Shown: piece after piece, positions 24,928-37,966 of the stretch
Layout: each line of letters starts with the position of its first letter
How positions within the stretch are numbered: the stretch's first letter is position 1
Sequence record: OL310488.1
Source of the DNA: Escherichia phage EC101
Strand: one strand, 5' to 3'
DNA: 64,000 nucleotides
The notes under the pieces: model-generated
The model's database searches: none
What the model was told of the DNA's origin: nothing
The model's input: the letters and a program-made list of their open reading frames with translations, nothing else
Translations under genes and position numbers: made by a program

Positions 24928-25314
24928 ATGGAAATCGGCAAAAAATACGAGTTAAATCCACACCGTATTAAATCTTTCATTGATATTAGTTCATCAAATG
25001 CTAATATGGTCGGCATCATTCAAGAAAATGGTGGTTGGTTTGAAGTTAAATCAATATCAAGTTTAGATGGCTTTGATTATGTAACCGAAATCATTTGTGC
25101 TAATGGTGAAATCTATAATGATGATGGTATGGGTGATGATTATTTTGAACTTAGTGAAGAAGAGTTTTATTGTTTCCGCGAATATAAAGAACCGACTTCT
25201 GAAGAAGATGAAGTCAAAGACAAGGTTTCTGGCGTAACAAAAATTCACTGCATTGTTGACGAAAACAATGTAGATGAAATCATTGAACTTTTGCGAAAAA
25301 CTTTCAAAAAGTAG
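24928..25314 (+). CDS. hypothetical acidic protein (128 aa; alternative start at 24913)
   Basis: GAGGAAAATCAAA-ATG; no recognisable domain. Confidence 0.6.
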   Translation: MEIGKKYELNPHRIKSFIDISSSNANMVGIIQENGGWFEVKSISSLDGFDYVTEIICANGEIYNDDGMGDDYFELSEEEFYCFREYKEPTSEEDEVKDKVSGVTKIHCIVDENNVDEIIELLRKTFKK

Positions 25315-25345
25315 TTTACATAGGGTTTTAGTTGTGATACTATTA
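25314..25345 (+). promoter_or_regulatory. T4-type early promoter
   Basis: GTTTACA ... GTGATACTATTA. Confidence 0.5.
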
Positions 25346-25373
25346 CCCTATCAAAACTAATGGAGAAAAGAAA

Positions 25374-25442
25374 ATGTTAGCACCTTATATTATGGCAGCA
25401 GTTATGTTGGTTTGTTTATATCTTTTGATTAAAGCTTGCTAA
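25374..25442 (+). CDS. mini-ORF encoding a 22-aa hydrophobic peptide (MLAPYIMAAVMLVCLYLLIKAC)
   Basis: GGAGAAAAGAAA-ATG directly downstream of an early promoter; the stop is followed by AAGGAG SD of the next gene. Confidence 0.35.
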   Translation: MLAPYIMAAVMLVCLYLLIKAC

Positions 25443-25452
25443 GGAGAATAAA

Positions 25453-25695
25453 ATGAGATTACAACGTCAGAGCATTAAAGATTCGGAAGTTAGAGGTAAA
25501 TGGTATTTTAATATCATCGGTAAAGATTCTGAACTTGTTGAAAAAGCTGAACATCTTTTACGTGACATGGGATGGGAAGATGAATGTGATGGATGCCCTC
25601 TTTATGAGGATGGAGAAAGCGCAGGATTTTGGATTTACCATTCTGACGTCGAGCAGTTTAAAGCTGATTGGAAAATTGTGAAAAAGTCTGTTTAA
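25453..25695 (+). CDS. hypothetical protein (80 aa)
   Basis: AAGGAG SD; no recognisable domain. Confidence 0.6.
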   Translation: MRLQRQSIKDSEVRGKWYFNIIGKDSELVEKAEHLLRDMGWEDECDGCPLYEDGESAGFWIYHSDVEQFKADWKIVKKSV

Positions 25696-25705
25696 GGAAA
25701 ATAAT

Positions 25706-26061
25706 ATGTCTGACATTCGTGTAGCTGGAATTGCTCGAGTAAGTATTCGTTGCCAACTTAAAACTGCACCTGGGACGGCTTATATTAATTTATCACACGA
25801 CCTATGTTCTAGTGAAAGACAGTTAACAGGTGTAATTACATTTTACGCTGGATTTGGCGGAAACGAATTTACTGTAGGCGAATTTGTTGGCTGTAAATTA
25901 AAAGTTCAGAAGAACGTATTAGAACTTTTTAATGACCTTTACGATGATAGTGATGAAGTTTTTGATGAAATCGCACAAGCAGTTAACAGAGGAATGGTAA
26001 CTTTAGTTAAAATGATTAAAGATAGCGGATTTGCTTCTGGCCCCTTTCAGTGGGAGGTAAT

Positions 26062-26065
<4 letters not shown>
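25706..26065 (+). CDS. hypothetical protein (119 aa)
   Basis: AAGGAAAATAAT-ATG. Confidence 0.6.
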
Positions 26066-27090
<1,025 letters not shown>

Positions 27091-27091
<1 letters not shown>

Positions 27092-27639
27092 TGAAACAAT
27101 ACCAATTTTTAATTAAAGATATCCTGGAAAATGGCTACGAAACCGATGACCGAACAGGCACAGGAACAATTGCTTTGTTCGGTACTAAATTACGCTGGGA
27201 TTTAACTAAAGGTTTTCCTGCAGTAACAACTAAGAAGCTCGCCTGGAAAGCTTGCATTGCTGAGCTGCTTTGGTTTTTATCGGGAAGCACAAATGTCAAT
27301 GATTTGCGATTAATTCAACATGATTCGTTAATCCAAGGCAAAACAGTTTGGGATGAAAATTACGAAAATCAAGCAAAAGATTTAGGATACCATAGCGGTG
27401 AACTTGGTCCAATTTATGGAAAACAGTGGCGTGATTTTGGTGGTGTAGACCAAATTATAGAAGTTATTGATCGTATTAAAAAATTGCCAAATGATAGGCG
27501 TCAAATTGTTTCAGCATGGAATCCAGCTGAACTCAAGCAGATGGCATTACCGCCTTGTCATATGTTCTATCAGTTTAATGTGCGTAATGGCTATTTGGAT
27601 TTGCAGTGGTATCAACGATCAGTAGATGTTTTCTTGGGT
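27091..27639 (+). CDS. td: thymidylate synthase, exon 1
   Basis: sequence MKQYQFLIKDILENGYETDDRTGTGT...; exon ends ...CTTGGGT at the group I 5' splice site. Confidence 0.9.
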
Positions 27640-28655
27640 TAATTGAGGCCTGAGTATAAGGTGACTTATACTTGTAATCTATCTAAACGGGGAACCTCTC
27701 TAGTAGACAATCCCGTGCTAAATTGTAGGACTGCCCTTTAATAAATACTTCTATATTTAAAGAGGTATTTATGAAAAGCGGAATTTATCAGATTAAAAAT
27801 ACTTTAAACAATAAAGTATATGTAGGAAGTGCTAAAGATTTTGAAAAGAGATGGAAGAGGCATTTTAAAGATTTAGAAAAAGGATGCCATTCTTCTATAA
27901 AGCTTCAGAGGTCTTTTAACAAACATGGTAATGTGTTTGAATGTTCTATTTTGGAAGAAATTCCATATGAGAAAGATTTGATTATTGAACGAGAAAATTT
28001 TTGGATTAAAGAGCTTAATTCTAAAATTAATGGATACAATATTGCTGATGCAACGTTTGGTGATACATGTTCTACGCATCCATTAAAAGAAGAAATTATT
28101 AAGAAACGTTCTGAAACTGTTAAAGCTAAGATGCTTAAACTTGGACCTGATGGTCGGAAAGCTCTTTACAGTAAACCCGGAAGTAAAAACGGGCGTTGGA
28201 ATCCAGAAACCCATAAGTTTTGTAAGTGCGGTGTTCGCATACAAACTTCTGCTTATACTTGTAGTAAATGCAGAAATCGTTCAGGTGAAAATAATTCATT
28301 CTTTAATCATAAGCATTCAGACATAACTAAATCTAAAATATCAGAAAAGATGAAAGGTAAAAAGCCTAGTAATATTAAAAAGATTTCATGTGATGGGGTT
28401 ATTTTTGATTGTGCAGCAGATGCAGCTAGACATTTTAAAATTTCGTCTGGATTAGTTACTTATCGTGTAAAATCTGATAAATGGAATTGGTTCTACATAA
28501 ATGCCTAACGACTATCCCTTTGGGGAGTAGGGTCAAGTGACTCGAAACGATAGACAACTTGCTTTAACAAGTTGGAGATATAGTCTGATCTGCATGGTGA
28601 CATGCAGCTGGATATAATTCCGGGGTAAGATTAACGACCTTATCTGAACATAATG
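27640..28655 (+). mobile_element. group I self-splicing intron (td intron, 1016 nt) carrying the I-TevI ORF
   Basis: intron starts TAATTGAGGCCTGAGTATAAGGTGACTTATACTTGTAATCTATCTAAACGGGGAACC... and ends ...TAAGATTAACGACCTTATCTGAACATAATG, as in the T4 td intron; splicing restores a 286-aa TS reading frame. Confidence 0.9.
27771..28508 (+). CDS. I-TevI: I-TevI GIY-YIG homing endonuclease (intron-encoded)
   Basis: 245-aa ORF inside the intron; N-terminal GIYQIKN...YVGSAKDF...R motif (GIY-YIG); zinc finger CKCG...CSKC; AAAGAGG SD. Confidence 0.9.
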   Translation: MKSGIYQIKNTLNNKVYVGSAKDFEKRWKRHFKDLEKGCHSSIKLQRSFNKHGNVFECSILEEIPYEKDLIIERENFWIKELNSKINGYNIADATFGDTCSTHPLKEEIIKKRSETVKAKMLKLGPDGRKALYSKPGSKNGRWNPETHKFCKCGVRIQTSAYTCSKCRNRSGENNSFFNHKHSDITKSKISEKMKGKKPSNIKKISCDGVIFDCAADAARHFKISSGLVTYRVKSDKWNWFYINA

Positions 28656-28967
28656 CTTCCATTTAATATTGCATCATATGCTGCGTTAGTTCATATTGTA
28701 GCTAAGATGTGTAATCTTATTCCGGGAGATTTGATATTTTCCGGTGGTAATACTCATATCTATATGAATCACGTAGAACAATGTAAAGAAATTTTGCGTC
28801 GTGAACCTAAAGAGCTTTGTGAACTGGTAATAGGCGGATTGCCTTATAAATTCCGCTATCTTTCTACTAAAGAACAATTGGAATACATTCTTAAACTCAG
28901 GCCTAAAGATTTCGTTCTCAAAGATTATCAGTCCCACGGCGTCTTGAAAGGAAAAATGGCGGTGTAA
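28656..28967 (+). CDS. td: thymidylate synthase, exon 2
   Basis: LPFNIASYAALVHIVAKMCNLIPGDLIFSGGNTHIYMNHV... continues the TS frame directly after the intron. Confidence 0.9.
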   Translation, partial: LPFNIASYAALVHIVAKMCNLIPGDLIFSGGNTHIYMNHVEQCKEILRREPKELCELVIGGLPYKFRYLSTKEQLEYILKLRPKDFVLKDYQSHGVLKGKMAV

Positions 28968-28990
28968 TTTTAATTTAATTGTGAGGATTT

Positions 28991-29254
28991 ATGATTTTAC
29001 GATTTAAAGATACTTCTGGTGTAGTTCTTTTTACACTTCCTAACCCAAGTGAGTTAGAAGTTCCAGGACCAAATCAGCCTATTATCATTTATGGCAAAAA
29101 ATATTATACTCATAAAATGACTCGTGAGTATTTTGATAATAAAATTTCCACAGTTAAAACTTCTTCTGACTGTTACTACGATATTACTGTTTTAACGGAA
29201 AAACAATATGCCGAATTATCACCGCGCGGGCCGTCTATGTCGGGTAGTGAATAA
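28991..29254 (+). CDS. hypothetical protein (87 aa)
   Basis: GTGAGGATTT-ATG; no recognisable domain. Confidence 0.55.
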
Positions 29255-29534
29255 ATACAAATCCGACTTTGATGTGAATATTCACCGTGGTACATTTTGG
29301 GGAAATTACGTCGGTAAAGATGCTGGCAGCCGGGAGGCTGCCATTGAATTATTCAAAAAAGATTTTATACGTCGAATTAAATCCGGAGAAATAACTAAAG
29401 CACATTTAGAGCCTTTACGTGGAATGAGGCTAGGATGCACATGTAAACCAAAGCCGTGTCATGGTGATATAATAGCTCATATAGTTAACCGACTGTTTAA
29501 AGACGATTTTCAAGTTGAGGACTTATGCAATTAA
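29208..29534 (+). CDS. hypothetical protein (108 aa) with C-terminal GCTCKPxPCHGD motif
   Basis: ORF overlapping the previous one by 47 nt; start uncertain; the Cys/His motif suggests a small metal-binding domain. Confidence 0.5.
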
Positions 29535-31789
29535 TTAATGTTATCAAAAGTAGTGGTGTTTCTCAGAGCTTTGACCCGCAAAAAATTATTAAAGTTTTAT
29601 CTTGGGCATCTGAGGGAACATCAGTAGATCCTTATGAATTATATGAAAATATTAAATCATATCTCCGTGATGGAATGACAACTGATGACATTCAGACTAT
29701 TGTCATTAAGGCTGCTGCGAATTCTATTTCGGTTGAAGAGCCTGATTATCAATATGTAGCTGCACGCTGTTTAATGTTCGCTCTTCGTAAGCATGTTTAT
29801 GGGCAGTATGAACCACGTTCATTTATTGACCATATTTCTTACTGTGTAAATGAAGGTAAATATGACCCTGAATTATTGTCAAAATATTCAGCAGAAGAAA
29901 TTACATTTTTAGAATCAAAAATTAAGCACGAGCGGGATATGGAATTTACTTATTCCGGGGCGATGCAATTAAAAGAAAAATATCTAGTTAAAGATAAAAC
30001 CACTGGTCAAATTTATGAAACTCCACAGTTTGCATTTATGACTATTGGAATGGCATTGCATCAAGATGAACCTGTTGATAGATTAAAACATGTTATCCGT
30101 TTTTATGAAGCGGTATCTACTCGACAGATTTCATTACCAACTCCTATTATGGCTGGTTGCCGTACTCCAACTCGGCAGTTTAGTTCATGCGTTGTTATTG
30201 AGGCAGGCGATTCACTGAAGTCTATCAATAAGGCTTCTGCTTCAATTGTTGAATATATCTCTAAACGCGCTGGAATTGGTATTAACGTTGGTATGATTCG
30301 TGCTGAAGGTTCTAAGATTGGCATGGGTGAAGTACGCCATACTGGTGTTATTCCTTTTTGGAAACATTTTCAGACTGCTGTTAAATCATGCTCACAGGGT
30401 GGAATTCGTGGCGGCGCTGCTACTGCTTATTATCCTATTTGGCATTTGGAAGTTGAAAATCTTCTTGTTTTGAAAAATAACAAAGGCGTAGAAGAAAACC
30501 GTATTCGTCATATGGATTATGGTGTTCAACTGAATGATTTGATGATGGAACGTTTTGGAAAGAACGATTACATTACTTTGTTCAGTCCCCATGAAATGGG
30601 CGGAGAGCTTTATTATTCTTATTTTAAAGACCAAGACCGTTTCCGTGAATTATACGAAGCAGCAGAAAAAGACCCTAATATTCGTAAAAAGCGTATTAAA
30701 GCCCGTGAACTATTTGAATTGCTCATGACTGAACGCTCAGGAACAGCAAGAATTTATGTACAGTTCATTGATAATACGAATAACTATACTCCGTTTATTC
30801 GTGAAAAGGCACCTATTCGTCAGAGTAACTTGTGCTGTGAAATTGCTATTCCAACAAATGATGTGAATAGTCCTGATGCTGAAATTGGATTGTGTACTCT
30901 CTCTGCATTCGTACTAGATAATTTTGACTGGCAAGACCAAGATAAAATTAATGAATTGGCAGAAGTTCAAGTTCGTGCTCTTGATAATCTGTTGGATTAC
31001 CAAGGATATCCAGTTCCTGAAGCAGAAAAAGCTAAAAAGCGTCGTAACCTCGGTGTAGGTGTTACCAACTATGCAGCTTGGCTGGCAAGTAACTTTGCTT
31101 CTTATGAAGATGCTAATGATTTAACACATGAACTATTTGAGAGATTACAGTATGGACTCATTAAAGCATCCATTAAGCTCGCCAAAGAAAAAGGACCTTG
31201 CGAATATTATTCAGACACTCGTTGGTCTCGAGGCGAATTACCTATCGACTGGTACAATAAAAAGATTGACCAAATCGCAGCTCCAAAATACGTTTGTGAC
31301 TGGTCGGCGCTGCGGGAAGACCTTAAGCTCTTTGGCATCCGTAATAGCACATTATCAGCACTTATGCCATGTGAGTCATCTTCCCAAGTTTCTAACAGTA
31401 CAAACGGTATCGAGCCTCCACGTGGACCAGTCTCTGTTAAAGAATCAAAAGAGGGTTCCTTTAATCAAGTCGTGCCCAATATTGAGCATAACATAGACCT
31501 TTACGACTATACATGGAAATTAGCTAAGAAAGGTAATAAACCTTATCTTACGCAGGTAGCTATTATGCTGAAATGGGTTTGTCAATCAGCTTCGGCGAAT
31601 ACATATTATGACCCGCAGATTTTTCCAAAAGGAAAGGTTCCAATGTCTGTAATGATTGATGACATGCTATACGGATGGTATTATGGCATTAAAAACTTCT
31701 ACTATCATAATACTCGTGATGGTTCCGGTACTGATGATTATGAAATAGAAACTCCAAAAGCCGATGATTGCGCAGCGTGTAAATTGTAA
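29525..31789 (+). CDS. nrdA: aerobic ribonucleoside-diphosphate reductase, alpha subunit
   Basis: 754-aa ORF, identical in length to T4 NrdA; ATP-cone N-terminus and class I RNR catalytic motifs. Confidence 0.95.
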   Translation: MQLINVIKSSGVSQSFDPQKIIKVLSWASEGTSVDPYELYENIKSYLRDGMTTDDIQTIVIKAAANSISVEEPDYQYVAARCLMFALRKHVYGQYEPRSFIDHISYCVNEGKYDPELLSKYSAEEITFLESKIKHERDMEFTYSGAMQLKEKYLVKDKTTGQIYETPQFAFMTIGMALHQDEPVDRLKHVIRFYEAVSTRQISLPTPIMAGCRTPTRQFSSCVVIEAGDSLKSINKASASIVEYISKRAGIGINVGMIRAEGSKIGMGEVRHTGVIPFWKHFQTAVKSCSQGGIRGGAATAYYPIWHLEVENLLVLKNNKGVEENRIRHMDYGVQLNDLMMERFGKNDYITLFSPHEMGGELYYSYFKDQDRFRELYEAAEKDPNIRKKRIKARELFELLMTERSGTARIYVQFIDNTNNYTPFIREKAPIRQSNLCCEIAIPTNDVNSPDAEIGLCTLSAFVLDNFDWQDQDKINELAEVQVRALDNLLDYQGYPVPEAEKAKKRRNLGVGVTNYAAWLASNFASYEDANDLTHELFERLQYGLIKASIKLAKEKGPCEYYSDTRWSRGELPIDWYNKKIDQIAAPKYVCDWSALREDLKLFGIRNSTLSALMPCESSSQVSNSTNGIEPPRGPVSVKESKEGSFNQVVPNIEHNIDLYDYTWKLAKKGNKPYLTQVAIMLKWVCQSASANTYYDPQIFPKGKVPMSVMIDDMLYGWYYGIKNFYYHNTRDGSGTDDYEIETPKADDCAACKL

Positions 31790-32520
31790 TGAATTATCAA
31801 AAAATCTATAACGACCTAATTTCCCGAGCTCAGGCTCGGGAATCTTTACTAGAATATAAAGAGACACATCATATAATCCCTAAATGTATGGGAGGTTCTG
31901 ATGATAAGGAAAATTTAGTTGAATTAACAGCCAGAGAACATTTTATAGCTCATCTATTACTATGTAAGATAAATGAAGGCCATTTTGGTCTTGCCTCTGC
32001 GTTAACGTTAATGGCAACAGATAAAGCTGGCAATAGAATTAATAACAGATTGTACAGCTTACACAGAAAATTATTTGCTAAAGCTAATTCTGAGTTCTTT
32101 AAGAAATATTGGAAAAATAATCCTCATCCTAAAGGGATGCTAGGCAAGCATCATAAAAACGAAACTAAACAGCATGTATCTAACGTGAATAGATATGCGT
32201 GCCCATCTGTAGAAATACATAAATTCTCATTAGATGGGGATTTCATAGAAACCTTTCACTCTATTGCGGCAGCGTCCCGGTCAGTTAATGGAAACGGGTC
32301 AAATATCAAATATTGTGCCGAGGGTAAATTTCAATATGCTTATGGATTTAGATGGTCATATCAACTTGATGCAAAGTTTGACAAAATAAAACCAAGAGAT
32401 TATAAAGGAATCCGCGGTAAGAAATGGATTAATAATGGAAGTGAATGCACGCTTATAGGTAAAGATGATATTATACCGCTAGGTTGGAAACACGGCAGAA
32501 TTTTAAAGAGGAAAAATTAA
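31789..32520 (+). CDS. mobE: free-standing HNH homing endonuclease (MobE-like)
   Basis: 243-aa ORF between nrdA and nrdB with overlapping start and stop codons; HNH motif HHIIPKCMGGSDDKENLVELTAREHFIAH. Confidence 0.8.
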   Translation: MNYQKIYNDLISRAQARESLLEYKETHHIIPKCMGGSDDKENLVELTAREHFIAHLLLCKINEGHFGLASALTLMATDKAGNRINNRLYSLHRKLFAKANSEFFKKYWKNNPHPKGMLGKHHKNETKQHVSNVNRYACPSVEIHKFSLDGDFIETFHSIAAASRSVNGNGSNIKYCAEGKFQYAYGFRWSYQLDAKFDKIKPRDYKGIRGKKWINNGSECTLIGKDDIIPLGWKHGRILKRKN

Positions 32521-33698
32521 TGTCTACAGTTTTTAATACAAATCCAGTTGATGTTTTAAAAGAACCTATGTTTTTTGGTTCAGGTCTTGGTATTGCGCGT
32601 TATGATATTCAACGTCATAAAGTTTTTGAAGATTTAACCGAAAAGCAATTATCATTTTTCTGGCGTCCTGAAGAAGTAAACTTGATGATGGATGCTGCAC
32701 AGTTTAATAAGCTTCCTCAGTACCAGCAAAATATTTTTACTAACAACCTGAAGTATCAATCACTTTTAGATAGCATTCAGGGTCGTGCGCCGTCTGCTGT
32801 ACTTATGTCATTAATTTCAGACCCAAGTCTTGATACATGGGTTGCTACATGGACTTTTAGTGAAACTATTCACAGTCGTTCATATACTCATATCATGCGA
32901 AATCTTTATACTGATCCATCGAAGGTATTTGATGAGATTGTATTAGATGAAGCTATTATGAAACGTGCTGAATCCATTGGACGTTATTATGATGATGTTC
33001 TGATTAAAACTCGTTATTGGGAAAACGCTAAAGCTGATATCGAATACCAAAAAGAAATTAATGCAGACGAAGACGTTATTGAAGATGCTATTGAGCATGA
33101 GACATATTGGAAGCGTGAGCTAATGAAATCTCTTTACCTCTGTTTGCATGTAATCAACGCATTGGAAGCTATTCGTTTTTATGTATCTTTTGCATGTACC
33201 TTTAACTTCCATAAGAACATGGAAATCATGGAAGGTAATGCCAAGATTATGAAGTTCATTGCACGCGATGAACAGCTTCACCTTAAAGGCACCCAATATA
33301 TTATTCGTCAACTTCAATCTGGTACTGATGGCGATCAATGGGTTAAAATTGCTCAAGAGTGTGAACAAGAAGCAGTTGATATTTTCATGGAAGTTAACCG
33401 CCAAGAAAAAGATTGGGCAGTTCATTTATTTAAAGATGGAGATGTTCCTGGATTAAATACAAATAGCATGTGGAGCTTTATTGATTACTTAACTGTATCT
33501 CGTATGAAACAGTGTGGTCTTCCATGCCCAATTACCGATGCTCCGGTTAAACATCCATATCCTTGGATTCGTGAATATCTTAATTCTGATAATGTTCAAT
33601 CCGCGCCACAAGAAGTAGAACTGTCATCTTATCTTGTTGCACAGATTGATAATGATGTTGATGATAAAGTTATGATGAGTTTTAAAAAATACTTTTAA
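32520..33698 (+). CDS. nrdB: aerobic ribonucleoside-diphosphate reductase, beta subunit (uninterrupted, no intron)
   Basis: 392 aa from the ATG overlapping the mobE stop; sequence MSTVFNTNPVDVL...; continuous reading frame. Confidence 0.95.
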   Translation: MSTVFNTNPVDVLKEPMFFGSGLGIARYDIQRHKVFEDLTEKQLSFFWRPEEVNLMMDAAQFNKLPQYQQNIFTNNLKYQSLLDSIQGRAPSAVLMSLISDPSLDTWVATWTFSETIHSRSYTHIMRNLYTDPSKVFDEIVLDEAIMKRAESIGRYYDDVLIKTRYWENAKADIEYQKEINADEDVIEDAIEHETYWKRELMKSLYLCLHVINALEAIRFYVSFACTFNFHKNMEIMEGNAKIMKFIARDEQLHLKGTQYIIRQLQSGTDGDQWVKIAQECEQEAVDIFMEVNRQEKDWAVHLFKDGDVPGLNTNSMWSFIDYLTVSRMKQCGLPCPITDAPVKHPYPWIREYLNSDNVQSAPQEVELSSYLVAQIDNDVDDKVMMSFKKYF

Positions 33699-33703
33699 GG
33701 AGT

Positions 33704-33719
33704 GGGCCGCAAGGCCCAT
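33704..33719 (+). other. GC-rich hairpin (TGGGCC-GCAA-GGCCCA) between nrdB and denA, followed by TTTTATT
   Basis: perfect 6-bp stem with GNRA loop sitting between an AAGGAG SD-like element and the denA ATG. Confidence 0.6.
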
Positions 33720-33725
33720 TTTATT

Positions 33726-35313
<1,588 letters not shown>

Positions 35314-35316
35314 GTT

Positions 35317-35346
35317 GTTTACAAGTCCCTCGTGTTGTGTTATAGT
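35317..35346 (+). promoter_or_regulatory. T4-type early promoter for alc (copy 1 of a 54-bp repeated promoter-leader module)
   Basis: GTTTACAAGTCCCTCGTGTTGTGTTATAGTAG; the 54-bp module is repeated exactly at 51092..51145. Confidence 0.5.
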
Positions 35347-35377
35347 AGTCTTACTGACATAACATGAGGACTTTATG

Positions 35378-35881
35378 ATGGATTTGCAGCTTATTACTAC
35401 TGAAATGGTCGTTGAAGCATACGGTGATACTACAGATGGGATTTCTGTATTCAAAGGAAATCGTCGAGTTGGATATATCACCGATCTTAAGAAAGATTTA
35501 GCTAAGCAAGTCAAGCGGAAAACGACCATTAAAGAATATCGAAATCGTCGTCTTGAGCAAGCCCGTGACATGCTTCCTGATGCGGTTGAGGAGATGAAAG
35601 TCTTTTTAGAAAATCAACTCGCTAAGTATGAGTGTGAAGTATTCATTAATCAGACTCAGCCTAATGTTCATATCAATAGCTGTAAATGCTATATCATCGT
35701 TAATCCTTTGACGGGAAAACATCGTCTTGGAATTAGTAATCCAAATCGTAGTGCATCGGATATGGCAGAAGATGTTGAGGCATGCTTTAAAATTTCTAAA
35801 TCTCCAGCTGAACATCATATTTTAATTAACGGTCTTTCTCAAGACGATATTGTAGAGGTTATTAAAACTTTATGCATGTAA
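35378..35881 (+). CDS. alc: Alc (terminates host transcription on cytosine-containing DNA)
   Basis: 167 aa from the second ATG; sequence MDLQLITTEMVVEAYG... consistent with T4 Alc. Confidence 0.9.
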   Translation: MDLQLITTEMVVEAYGDTTDGISVFKGNRRVGYITDLKKDLAKQVKRKTTIKEYRNRRLEQARDMLPDAVEEMKVFLENQLAKYECEVFINQTQPNVHINSCKCYIIVNPLTGKHRLGISNPNRSASDMAEDVEACFKISKSPAEHHILINGLSQDDIVEVIKTLCM

Positions 35882-36225
35882 GTAATTTTACAGCTGGATT
35901 GCTATTACTTGTAATAGCATTTGGCGGAACATCTATTATTTTAAAAAATAAGGTAGAAAGATTAGAAACATCAGTTACTGAAATTACAAAAACAGCCAAT
36001 GAAAACGCTTTAGCATTAAATAATTTGCGAATTCAGTATAATTATATTGATGCGATGAATAATAAAAATCGTGAGGCAATTGCTGCTATTGAGCGTGAAA
36101 ATGAAAAACTGCGCAAAGATGCAAAGAAGGCGGATGTGGTGGCTTATAAGCCAGGATTGGTTGAAAAACAAATCAACAACTCCTTCAACAAGTTCGCAGA
36201 AGACATCCAGGACCTTTCTAAATGA
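35872..36225 (+). CDS. pseT.3: i-spanin (inner-membrane spanin subunit; T4 PseT.3 equivalent)
   Basis: 117-aa ORF with an N-terminal TM helix and a coiled-coil periplasmic domain; directly followed by a lipoprotein ORF. Confidence 0.75.
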   Translation: MHVSNFTAGLLLLVIAFGGTSIILKNKVERLETSVTEITKTANENALALNNLRIQYNYIDAMNNKNREAIAAIERENEKLRKDAKKADVVAYKPGLVEKQINNSFNKFAEDIQDLSK

Positions 36226-36521
36226 TTAAACTATCGGCAGTAATATTATCTATTGGTCTTCTAGTTGGTTGTTCGACAAAGCCTCTAGAAGTAAAGAAAG
36301 AAACAGTTCATCCCAATTGGCCTGTGCAAATAAAGTCATATGATGAAGCTAAACTATCTTGGCAAGTTAAAGTTATCGATGGTAAAGCTTGGGTCGGTAT
36401 GCCATTTGAAGATTCTCAGGAATTTCGTATTTGGCTTAATGATGTAAAACGATATGTACATGATCAGAAAACTATGATATGTTATTATCGTCAAGAGTTA
36501 AAAGAGGATAAATGCAAATGA
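36222..36521 (+). CDS. pseT.2: o-spanin (outer-membrane lipoprotein spanin subunit; T4 PseT.2 equivalent)
   Basis: 99-aa ORF; signal peptide with lipobox LVGC (MIKLSAVILSIGLLVGCS); ATGA overlap with the i-spanin. Confidence 0.75.
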   Translation: MIKLSAVILSIGLLVGCSTKPLEVKKETVHPNWPVQIKSYDEAKLSWQVKVIDGKAWVGMPFEDSQEFRIWLNDVKRYVHDQKTMICYYRQELKEDKCK

Positions 36522-36744
36522 TTTCATGGCATCAATTTGAGCATCTCAAAGGATTGATTTATGAATCCGAGATGGCTGCAATGATTTATGGACGCCAGAT
36601 TCAGCGATTAGAATCTTTACCTCCAACTAATGATGTTTTATTAGCTCAATCACGTGCTAATCTTAAAAATGAATACCAAAATAAGTGGGGCAAAGCATCT
36701 AAAGACCTGCATGATTATATTCAATCATTGGTTGAGAAAAATAA

Positions 36745-36748
<4 letters not shown>
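36512..36748 (+). CDS. hypothetical protein (78 aa)
   Basis: overlapping start and stop codons within the operon. Confidence 0.6.

Positions 36749-37966
<1,218 letters not shown>

Follow-up and report, generated by a model that had tools for sequence, protein, structure and literature searches.

An RB3-type mobE gene between nrdA and nrdB of Escherichia phage EC101

In phage T4, the junction between nrdA and nrdB harbours mobE, whose 141-aa product (NP_049844) was studied by Wilson & Edgell 2009 and whose start is coupled to nrdA by the sequence UAAUG. T4 MobE nicks nt 122–126 of T2 nrdB, and its gene contains a terminator located 27 nt past the start codon, which was mapped experimentally and is ~30–50% efficient (PMC2790892). 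Both MobE and Hef have nrdB as their target (review, PMC2988022). The Hef gene of phage U5 and others found between nrdA and nrdB share their intergenic site with the gene described here, but encode unrelated proteins. In two phages (L026 and L035), the gap is filled by an ORF of 519–530 aa with weak PD-(D/E)XK-like similarity. SegH/Hef as well as the distribution of mobE were reportedly covered by Sandegren et al. in 2005.

Here, we analysed a 64,000-nt stretch of the Tequatrovirus EC101 (OL310488.1), referred to as the window. Its nrdA-nrdB junction carries a gene that is already known under the GenBank name mobE (phage RB3) or as ‘homing endonuclease’, and no functional study of this RB3-type allele was found in the literature examined.

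Gene junctions and regulatory signals

The locus comprises the following features:

29525..31789, + strand: nrdA, RNR large subunit, 754 aa; equivalents are annotated in RB3, T4 and KMB26
31789..32520, + strand: endonuclease gene, RB3-type mobE, free-standing HNH, 243 aa, ATG start
31821..31848, + strand: putative internal intrinsic-terminator hairpin with a 9-bp stem TTCCCGAGC/GCTCGGGAA and loop TCAG, followed by TCTTTA (z=-4.35)
32450..32474, + strand: candidate MotA-type middle promoter for nrdB, CGCTTA-N13-TATTAT (relaxed scan, weak)
32507..32522, + strand: nrdB Shine-Dalgarno sequence AGAGGA (32507–32512) and TAATG stop/start overlap, inside the last endonuclease codons
32520..33698, + strand: nrdB, intron-less, 392 aa, a single 1179-nt ORF
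27771–28508, 3.3 kb upstream: I-TevI ORF within the td group I intron

The initial annotation had described a 243-aa ORF with an HNH motif whose two ends overlap the stop of nrdA and the start of nrdB, which agrees in full with our data. HHIIPKCMGG...ENLVELTAREHFIAH occupies aa 27–55, the last base of the nrdA stop codon TAA (31787–31789) is the first base of the endonuclease ATG (AAATTGTAATGAAT; TAATG, 1-nt overlap), and the mobE stop and the nrdB start are joined in the same manner (AAAAATTAATGTCT; TAATG, 1-nt overlap). The true start of nrdB is the ATG at 32520, as in annotated relatives, and not an upstream TTG proposed by a program-made ORF list. A chance ORF was rejected as well, since the frame is conserved, intact in ~55 phage records at at least 90% aa identity, and exhibits a dN/dS of ~0.1 across the whole protein. 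The gene is under purifying selection. No paralogue of the endonuclease was found elsewhere in the 64-kb window.

Absence of an intron from nrdB, which had likewise been claimed, follows from the continuity of the ORF, whose uninterrupted 1179 nt match the length of the intron-less nrdB genes of RB14 and RB68, and from the identity of its 392-aa product to the intron-less NrdB of KMB26, from which it shows no differences. An Rfam search of 25–37 kb with gathering thresholds produced no matches and missed even the td group I intron, making it unusable as an intron test. The endonuclease had also been called the only mobile element at this locus. This holds for the nrdA-nrdB pair, but not for the gene cluster, in which the td group I intron with I-TevI is located upstream.

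The hairpin itself (31821–31842) begins 29 nt past the end of the ATG codon and is identical in T4 and the window, and from this identity we infer that it would act as an attenuating terminator. As regards promoters, the strict MotA middle-promoter pattern had no match inside the ORF, and no late promoter TATAAATA was detected. In T4, nrdB is preceded by a MotA promoter (TGCTTTA); the window offers only the weak candidate listed above. The stretch 32507..32522 is homologous to the ribosome binding site of empty-site spacers and represents the right edge of the insert. At this edge, phage G2540-3 has a recombinant junction.

Domain structure and relation to T4 MobE

Within the protein and its gene, the following elements can be distinguished:

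31867..31953, + strand: HNH catalytic motif H27 H28 ... N42 ... H51 ... H55, modelled as beta-beta-alpha
31950..31970, + strand: mosaic breakpoint relative to T4; at least 90% identical on the left, unrelated on the right until nrdB
32227..32319, + strand: NUMOD1 DNA-binding module, aa 147–177, within a well-modelled beta-beta-alpha-alpha unit (aa 143–190)
32401..32508, + strand: small C-terminal beta-hairpin domain, KKWINNG...IPLGWKHGR, kept in full-length homologues and without Pfam assignment

Profile searches, which the initial annotation had suggested as a check, gave a match to PHROG 655 ‘homing endonuclease’ (E=4.8e-57) and a NUMOD1 match exceeding the Pfam gathering score (E=1.1e-5). 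The Pfam HNH model (PF01844) scored 19.8 bits (E=9e-4) relative to a gathering score of 21.4, and with the same model the founding member T4 MobE attains only 21.5 bits and ECO4 MobE 23.4 bits. H27/H28, N42, H51 and H55 are invariant across 45 homologues, providing the general-base His, the Asn and the metal-binding His of an HH...N...H motif, and the motif aligns with its counterpart in a group II intron maturase. In the predicted structure, the motif is contained in strands 25–28 and 43–46 and helix 48–61 (pLDDT 96–97). Because a sequence search of the PDB yielded only a marginal HNH match, to the group II intron maturase (E=0.09), structural relatives were reached through structure prediction and fold search. 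Two methods returned I-HmuI (PDB 1U3E), an HNH nicking endonuclease encoded by an intron of Bacillus phage SPO1, as the top and best structural match, with further HNH nucleases lower in the lists. The protein begins with an HNH head of beta-beta-alpha fold, to which DNA-binding modules that include NUMOD1 are attached. The NUMOD1 match above the Pfam cutoff as well as the concordant fold matches place it among the I-HmuI-like modular HNH + NUMOD endonucleases, in which the HNH domain precedes helix-turn-helix modules of the NUMOD type. The C-terminal beta-hairpin domain presumably makes additional contacts with DNA.

The protein had been described as MobE-like. This is borne out by the insertion site at the nrdA/nrdB junction, the TAATG coupling and the terminator hairpin, but not by full-length orthology, as only aa 1 to ~61 align with T4 MobE. 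The HNH heads (aa 1 to ~55–61) are 90% identical, whereas the remaining ~185 residues are unrelated: the T4 type has NUMOD3 repeats and a Cys-rich tail where the window protein has NUMOD1 and a beta-hairpin tail. The same picture is seen at the DNA level. The nrdA 3' flank, the hairpin region and the head share ~95% DNA identity with T4, and the T4-like segment (at least 90% identical; nrdA 3' end and first ~160 nt of mobE) drops to background at ~31955. The gene thus belongs to the 243-aa ‘RB3-type’ lineage and is not a full-length T4 MobE orthologue, so that the T4 target (nrdB nt 122–126) is not simply transferable.

Presence and absence of the gene among relatives

The RB3 type is the more widespread of the two mobE types. 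Carriers make up 57 of 649 records. Comparison of the intergenic region across relatives, as had also been proposed, revealed the site occupied or empty in near-identical genomes and a co-converted flank in the occupied ones:

31606..31786, + strand: recoded nrdA 3' end, the left co-conversion tract, which travels with the endonuclease gene

In the closest backbone relative, vB-Eco-KMB26 (99.2% identity over 24 kb), the site is empty. Apart from the insert, it differs from the window only in a recoded tract with sharp limits within the final 181 nt of nrdA and at 4 nrdB bases. The tract has 33 mismatches to KMB26, as compared to 0–3 in every 200 nt of the 7.6 kb before it. Carriers of the gene have ~180 nt at the end of nrdA exchanged for a version that is ~19% diverged. 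Empty-site twins of carriers comprise KMB26 and a second phage, L033, and the edges of the diverged tracts are sharp. A comparison of 7 insert-bearing with 8 empty Tequatroviruses yielded 18 fixed sites, which fall into 31664–31690 and 31762–31786. The former cluster stops a few bases upstream of the codons for the FYYHNTRDG block (31697–31723), which we take to encode the radical-transfer Tyr-Tyr pair. Amino-acid changes (G/I versus F/G) are included in the linked tract. As a universal immunity signature these changes were rejected, for they are absent from homologue-bearing phages of other genera. Across diverged backbones, gene copies are only 0–2 nt apart while the backbone flanks differ by 2–12%. 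The endonuclease gene is 10–30 times less diverse than its own flanks, which would be consistent with super-Mendelian inheritance through site-specific cleavage. The comparison with relatives thereby supports the view that the gene is mobile.

It is conceivable that the gene has become stagnant or domesticated, i.e. that homing was lost and the ORF is kept for the nrdB signals it contains (Shine-Dalgarno sequence, possible promoter, attenuating terminator), with deletions being counter-selected. The nrdB Shine-Dalgarno sequence does reside in the last ORF codons, the insert has replaced an ancestral spacer with a TATAAT box and a hairpin, one distant phage (L010) has a copy with a frameshift, and Wilson & Edgell argue likewise for retention of mobE in T4 (PMC2790892). 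However, the low dN/dS and the lack of variation in the catalytic residues speak for the protein itself being under selection, and presence or absence among 99.2%-identical genomes, like the near-identity of the copies on diverged backbones, points to horizontal spread in the recent past and not to passive retention by vertical descent. We regard domestication as very improbable. Alternatively, the enzyme could mainly be a nuclease for competition or exclusion, which damages co-infecting relatives and favours the nrd-region markers of the carrier, homing being a by-product. Marker exclusion is documented for free-standing T4 endonucleases (review, PMC2988022), and the amino-acid changes in the nrdA tract would fit, but the mechanism, a site-specific break followed by carrier-templated repair, is the same as in homing and sequence alone cannot separate the two. 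This option appears improbable to us, too.

Very probably, the ORF is an RB3-type mobE allele, namely a promoter-less, free-standing and modular HNH homing-endonuclease gene whose insertion point lies precisely between the stop codon of nrdA and the ribosome binding site of nrdB. Judging from the work on T4 (PMC2790892, PMC2988022), it would be transcribed from promoters upstream of nrdA and translated at a low level through termination-reinitiation at UAAUG, with the internal hairpin attenuating mobE. In mixed infections, again by analogy to T4, the enzyme would nick or cut the endonuclease-less allele near the insertion site, and repair by recombination with the donor would transfer the gene, together with neighbouring flank, to the recipient.

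Target site and comparison with known systems

Where such an enzyme might act can be approached through the nrdB region that corresponds to the T4 nick site:

32633..32650, + strand: counterpart of the region around the T4 MobE nicks (nrdB nt 114–131), identical to empty-site KMB26, to which nrdB nt 31–700 show no mismatch

Here, the window differs from three other empty-site alleles at 0–2 synonymous positions and is not T4-like. While T4 nrdB has many changes around the nick site, the T4-type protective changes expected there were not found in the window nrdB. It could be that the protein is in practice the same enzyme as T4 MobE and places its nick in the non-coding nrdB strand around nt 122–126 of endonuclease-less, possibly even its own, genomes, its different tail reading the conserved FFWRPEE-coding block or a neighbour. 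The common catalytic head (90% aa identity over aa 1–61) and the identical insertion site and regulation speak for this. Moreover, Wilson & Edgell put RB3 among the mobE-containing phages, some of which keep Lys AAG at codon 42, as does the window (PMC2790892), and in a second natural pair, co-conversion extends to some degree into nrdB nt 63–393. On the other hand, the DNA-binding region is unrelated, nrdB nt 31–990 are identical to the empty-site twin KMB26, so that self and target are indistinguishable there, and nrdB nt 1–450 contain no carrier-specific site (7 insert-bearing versus 8 empty Tequatroviruses), whereas T4-type alleles are heavily diverged exactly in this region. We consider functional equivalence to T4 MobE rather unlikely.

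The different tail, the identity of nrdB to empty-site alleles at the nick site and the confinement of all insert-linked polymorphism to the nrdA 3' end suggest, tentatively, that the enzyme may recognise or cleave the 3' end of nrdA or the spacer before nrdB, and not nrdB nt 122–126. A more speculative and somewhat doubtful extension is that RB3-type and T4-type mobE are competing alleles with common flank and head but swapped tails, the RB3 type having exchanged a target in nrdB, close to the Trp48 codon, for one at the nrdA 3' end, beside the block taken to encode the Tyr-Tyr pair. If true, this would be a case of natural domain-swap retargeting between two subunit genes of one enzyme. Near-isogenic carrier/empty pairs, e.g. 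the window phage and vB-Eco-KMB26, provide a ready-made system for mapping the target of the 243-aa type and for testing domain-swap retargeting.

The annotation is unchanged by these findings, as the gene is an ordinary one already present in GenBank. RB3 ‘mobE’ (YP_009098612, 243 aa) is 96% identical to the window protein over the full length, and copies annotated as ‘homing endonuclease’ in other phages (~55 Tequatrovirus genomes) reach up to 99.6% aa identity; their junctions with nrdA and nrdB are as in the window, without any difference of substance. RB3 differs in that its nrdB contains an intron with intact I-TevIII, both of which are missing from the window nrdB. The window protein and I-HmuI have the same modular architecture, in which the HNH domain is N-terminal and elongated NUMOD-type modules for DNA binding make up the C-terminal part. 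The name mobE hides two enzymes at the nrdA/nrdB site that possess a common catalytic head and unrelated DNA-binding tails, of which only the T4 type has been studied.

The locus and its endonuclease gene

The window is part of a Tequatrovirus (T4-like) genome that, over 24 kb around the ORF, shares 99.2% identity with Escherichia phage vB-Eco-KMB26 and 99.0% with the Yersinia PYPS2T group. The gene order is as follows.

Genes around the endonuclease ORF
Upstream of nrdA: td, split by a group I intron encoding I-TevI (intron-borne I-TevI ORF, 27771-28508)
Between td and nrdA: nrdA.2 and nrdA.1
29525-31789 (+): nrdA
31789-32520 (+): endonuclease ORF, 243 aa
32520-33698 (+): nrdB, with its ATG at 32520
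After nrdB: denA and rnlA

As the initial annotation had described, the 243-aa ORF overlaps both the nrdA stop and the nrdB start; a single base is common at each end, as the ORF ATG overlaps the nrdA stop and the nrdB ATG the ORF stop by 1 nt (TAATG in both cases). A search of window 25000-37000 with Rfam at gathering thresholds yielded no family, although the td group I intron (27643-28652) lies there, probably because the model fails on an intron that holds a large ORF.

The HNH motif named in that annotation is present at aa 27-55 of the ORF, and the profile search it had proposed as a check supported the assignment in one part and fell just short in another. That is, Pfam NUMOD1 (aa 147-177) exceeded its gathering score, whereas Pfam HNH reached 19.8 bits (E=9e-4), slightly below the cutoff of 21.4; the founding member, T4 MobE, scores no more than 21.5 bits on this model. 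PHROG 655 ('homing endonuclease') matches the product with E=4.8e-57. Residues H27, H28, P31, G36, N42, E50, H51 and H55 are invariant across 45 aligned homologues, and in an AlphaFold2 model built from this alignment (mean pLDDT 90) a beta-beta-alpha unit surrounds the HNH motif. We consider the HNH/NUMOD assignment secure.

The ORF is an already known gene and had been recognised correctly. Its product is 96% identical over the full length to the product annotated mobE in RB3 and the sibling phages RB5-RB10, and copies with 97-99.6% identity, labelled 'homing endonuclease' or 'hypothetical protein', occur in many Escherichia, Shigella, Yersinia, Salmonella and Hafnia phages. The complete cassette was found in 57 of 649 phage records matching the flanks, and the majority of the others have an empty site. 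For each of the six full-length homologues with examined neighbourhoods (48-73% identity), nrdA is the gene directly upstream, and for four, one of which belongs to a 246-kb Vibrio phage, nrdB was seen to follow directly.

Other occupants and states of the site were also observed. In a Salmonella-type phage (IMGVR_UViG_2706796257, L010:3275-4003) the homologue is frameshifted past ~aa 134, an instance of the gene decaying at its usual site; it is intact in the close relative L011. In two further phages (L035:2409-3998, L026:2440-3996) the nrdA-nrdB gap (~1.6 kb) is filled by a 519-530-aa ORF whose similarity to PD-(D/E)XK-type nucleases is no more than weak (MTES_1575, E=1.5e-4; DUF559); it is a different occupant, possibly a relative of the Hef published for phage U5. 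Gaps of 110-510 nt with small ORFs of unknown function occur in other phages. In a Logan contig (SRR15237818, L050:4001-7716), a 48%-identical homologue is followed by an nrdB that appears to be broken into two parts of 235 and 127 aa. Unannotated ORFs of 245-253 aa lie between and ahead of these parts, which suggests several further insertions in this nrdB.

Presence, absence and diverged flanks

Comparison of nrdA-nrdB regions in T4-like genomes supported the proposed mobility, be it current or recent, revealing a gene present or absent at one site and flanked by diverged tracts. KMB26 has an empty site with a 51-nt spacer. When 16 kb were aligned and mismatches counted per 200 nt, the 7.6 kb left of the insert showed 0-3 mismatches per 200 nt, followed by 33 in the final 181 nt of nrdA (31606-31786) and then the insert. 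To the right, nrdB differs only at nt 4, 5, 6 and 30, with no further difference for ~960 nt, and the NrdB proteins are identical. A second, independent pair from another T4-like lineage, L015 with a 65%-identical homologue and L033 with an empty site, has 79 mismatches in nrdA -505 to -1 and 15 in nrdB nt 63-393 against a near-identical background.

The insert extends from the nrdA stop codon to the nrdB Shine-Dalgarno sequence. Homology to the end of the empty spacer, AGCGGAAAATTT, covers the final 13 nt of the ORF, AGAGGAAAAATTA, and at this right edge a recombinant junction is present in G2540-3. The spacer replaced by the insert contains a TATAAT box and a hairpin, GACTCACGGACGAGTC.

Among the window, L007, IsaacDaniel, SH7 and G2540-3, the gene differs by 0-2 nt in 732, with flanks differing by 2-4% in nrdA and up to 12% in nrdB. 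Window-type and RB3-type sub-alleles show dS=0.16 and dN=0.017; the resulting dN/dS of ~0.1 indicates purifying selection on the gene. We also compared combinations of the td intron, RB3-type mobE and the nrdB intron (with I-TevIII), all within 5 kb, in G2540-3, RB3, L038, L039, L041 and L043. Some carriers have both introns, others have neither, and the window has mobE and the td intron; other combinations among close relatives are the td intron only (KMB26), the nrdB intron only (WilhelmHis) and absence of all three elements. Since many of the possible combinations thus occur among close relatives, the three elements assort independently. In combination, these results fit a still functional and spreading homing-endonuclease gene.

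Divergence from KMB26 is also concentrated, with sharp limits, in a second stretch at 35600-36000 (40 mismatches in 400 nt, background near-identical), which spans the end of an alc-like ORF (35375-35881) and the first part of the ORF after it (35872-36225). It represents a further mosaic exchange, here with no neighbouring endonuclease gene.

Relation to T4 MobE

Of the two types, T4 mobE is the one that has been studied: it lacks a promoter, is co-transcribed with nrdA and has an internal hairpin terminator, 27 nt past its AUG, that attenuates it (Wilson & Edgell 2009, PMC2790892). The window shares with T4 the UAAUG junction with nrdA, the hairpin in identical form (31821-31842; 9-bp stem, 4-nt loop, short U tract, z=-4.35), nearly the same final ~300 nt of nrdA and, from the start of the gene, ~160 nt at 90% DNA identity or more. 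Homologues at 52-65% aa identity (L011:3276, L015:3279, L047:4001) have a strong hairpin of wholly different sequence at the same position, ~30 nt into the ORF; there is none at that position in the homologues of a Vibrio phage (L049) and L050. The enterobacterial lineage seems to have conserved the attenuator. In T4, the effect of the terminator is offset by a MotA-type promoter (TGCTTTA) that lies upstream of nrdB. A strict MotA pattern gave no match in the window allele, which has one weak candidate (32450-32474), and nrdB transcription may therefore rely on read-through of a leaky terminator.

Directly past the H55 codon, at ~31955, identity to T4 drops to background up to nrdB, and the proteins align only over aa 1-61 (90%). 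The T4-type tail consists of NUMOD3 repeats and a Cys-rich end, whereas the ORF product has NUMOD1 and a small beta-hairpin domain. The initial interpretation, including the term 'MobE-like', therefore holds for site, regulation and catalytic head, but not for the DNA-binding tail, which usually determines target choice.

T4 MobE (141 aa) and the downstream NrdB.1 (83 aa; NC_000866 139716-140416) resemble a split version of an enzyme that is intact, with 213 or 232 aa, in other Tequatroviruses such as ECO4 (L046:3900-4598) and HY03 (P0035), so that the studied T4 enzyme may be a truncated form. NrdB.1, which bears a NUMOD3 motif, matches the last 83 aa of the 213-aa HY03 protein at 100% identity, and T4 MobE matches ECO4 to ~aa 117 before diverging into a short tail.

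The side of cleavage

Linked polymorphism of the RB3-type insert is entirely on the nrdA side. Between seven carriers and eight empty-site Tequatroviruses there are 18 fixed differences, all in nrdA 31664-31690 and 31762-31786, and none in nrdB nt 1-450. The first cluster stops a few bases 5' of the FYYHNTRDG codons (31697-31723), which we take to encode the radical-transfer Tyr-Tyr region of the class Ia RNR large subunit. Double-strand-break repair necessarily co-converts whatever DNA separates the break from the endonuclease gene, and the pattern is therefore as expected for a break in nrdA, ~100-180 nt upstream of the insert. Such a break would be the mirror image of T4, but we consider it somewhat short of an even chance: the linked tract may persist by mere proximity, T4 itself bears the same nrdA tract, and conversion in the L015/L033 pair extends to some degree into nrdB. 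Moreover, free-standing phage endonucleases reportedly may cut their own genomes, which likewise weakens the case for a break in nrdA.

In T4 x T2 crosses, mobE is inherited at high frequency in an HNH-dependent manner, and mobE causes a strand-specific nick at T2 nrdB nt 122-126; changes in T4 nrdB were proposed to protect the carrier (PMC2790892). T4 nrdB differs heavily from T2-like alleles at ~nt 100-140. The same region of the window is identical to KMB26, with 0-2 synonymous positions relative to three other empty-site alleles, and T4-type and RB3-type carriers differ in nrdB nt 1-150 by d=0.14-0.34. It is conceivable, if rather doubtful, that the two mobE types represent competing alleles with swapped DNA-binding tails that would direct them to different target genes.
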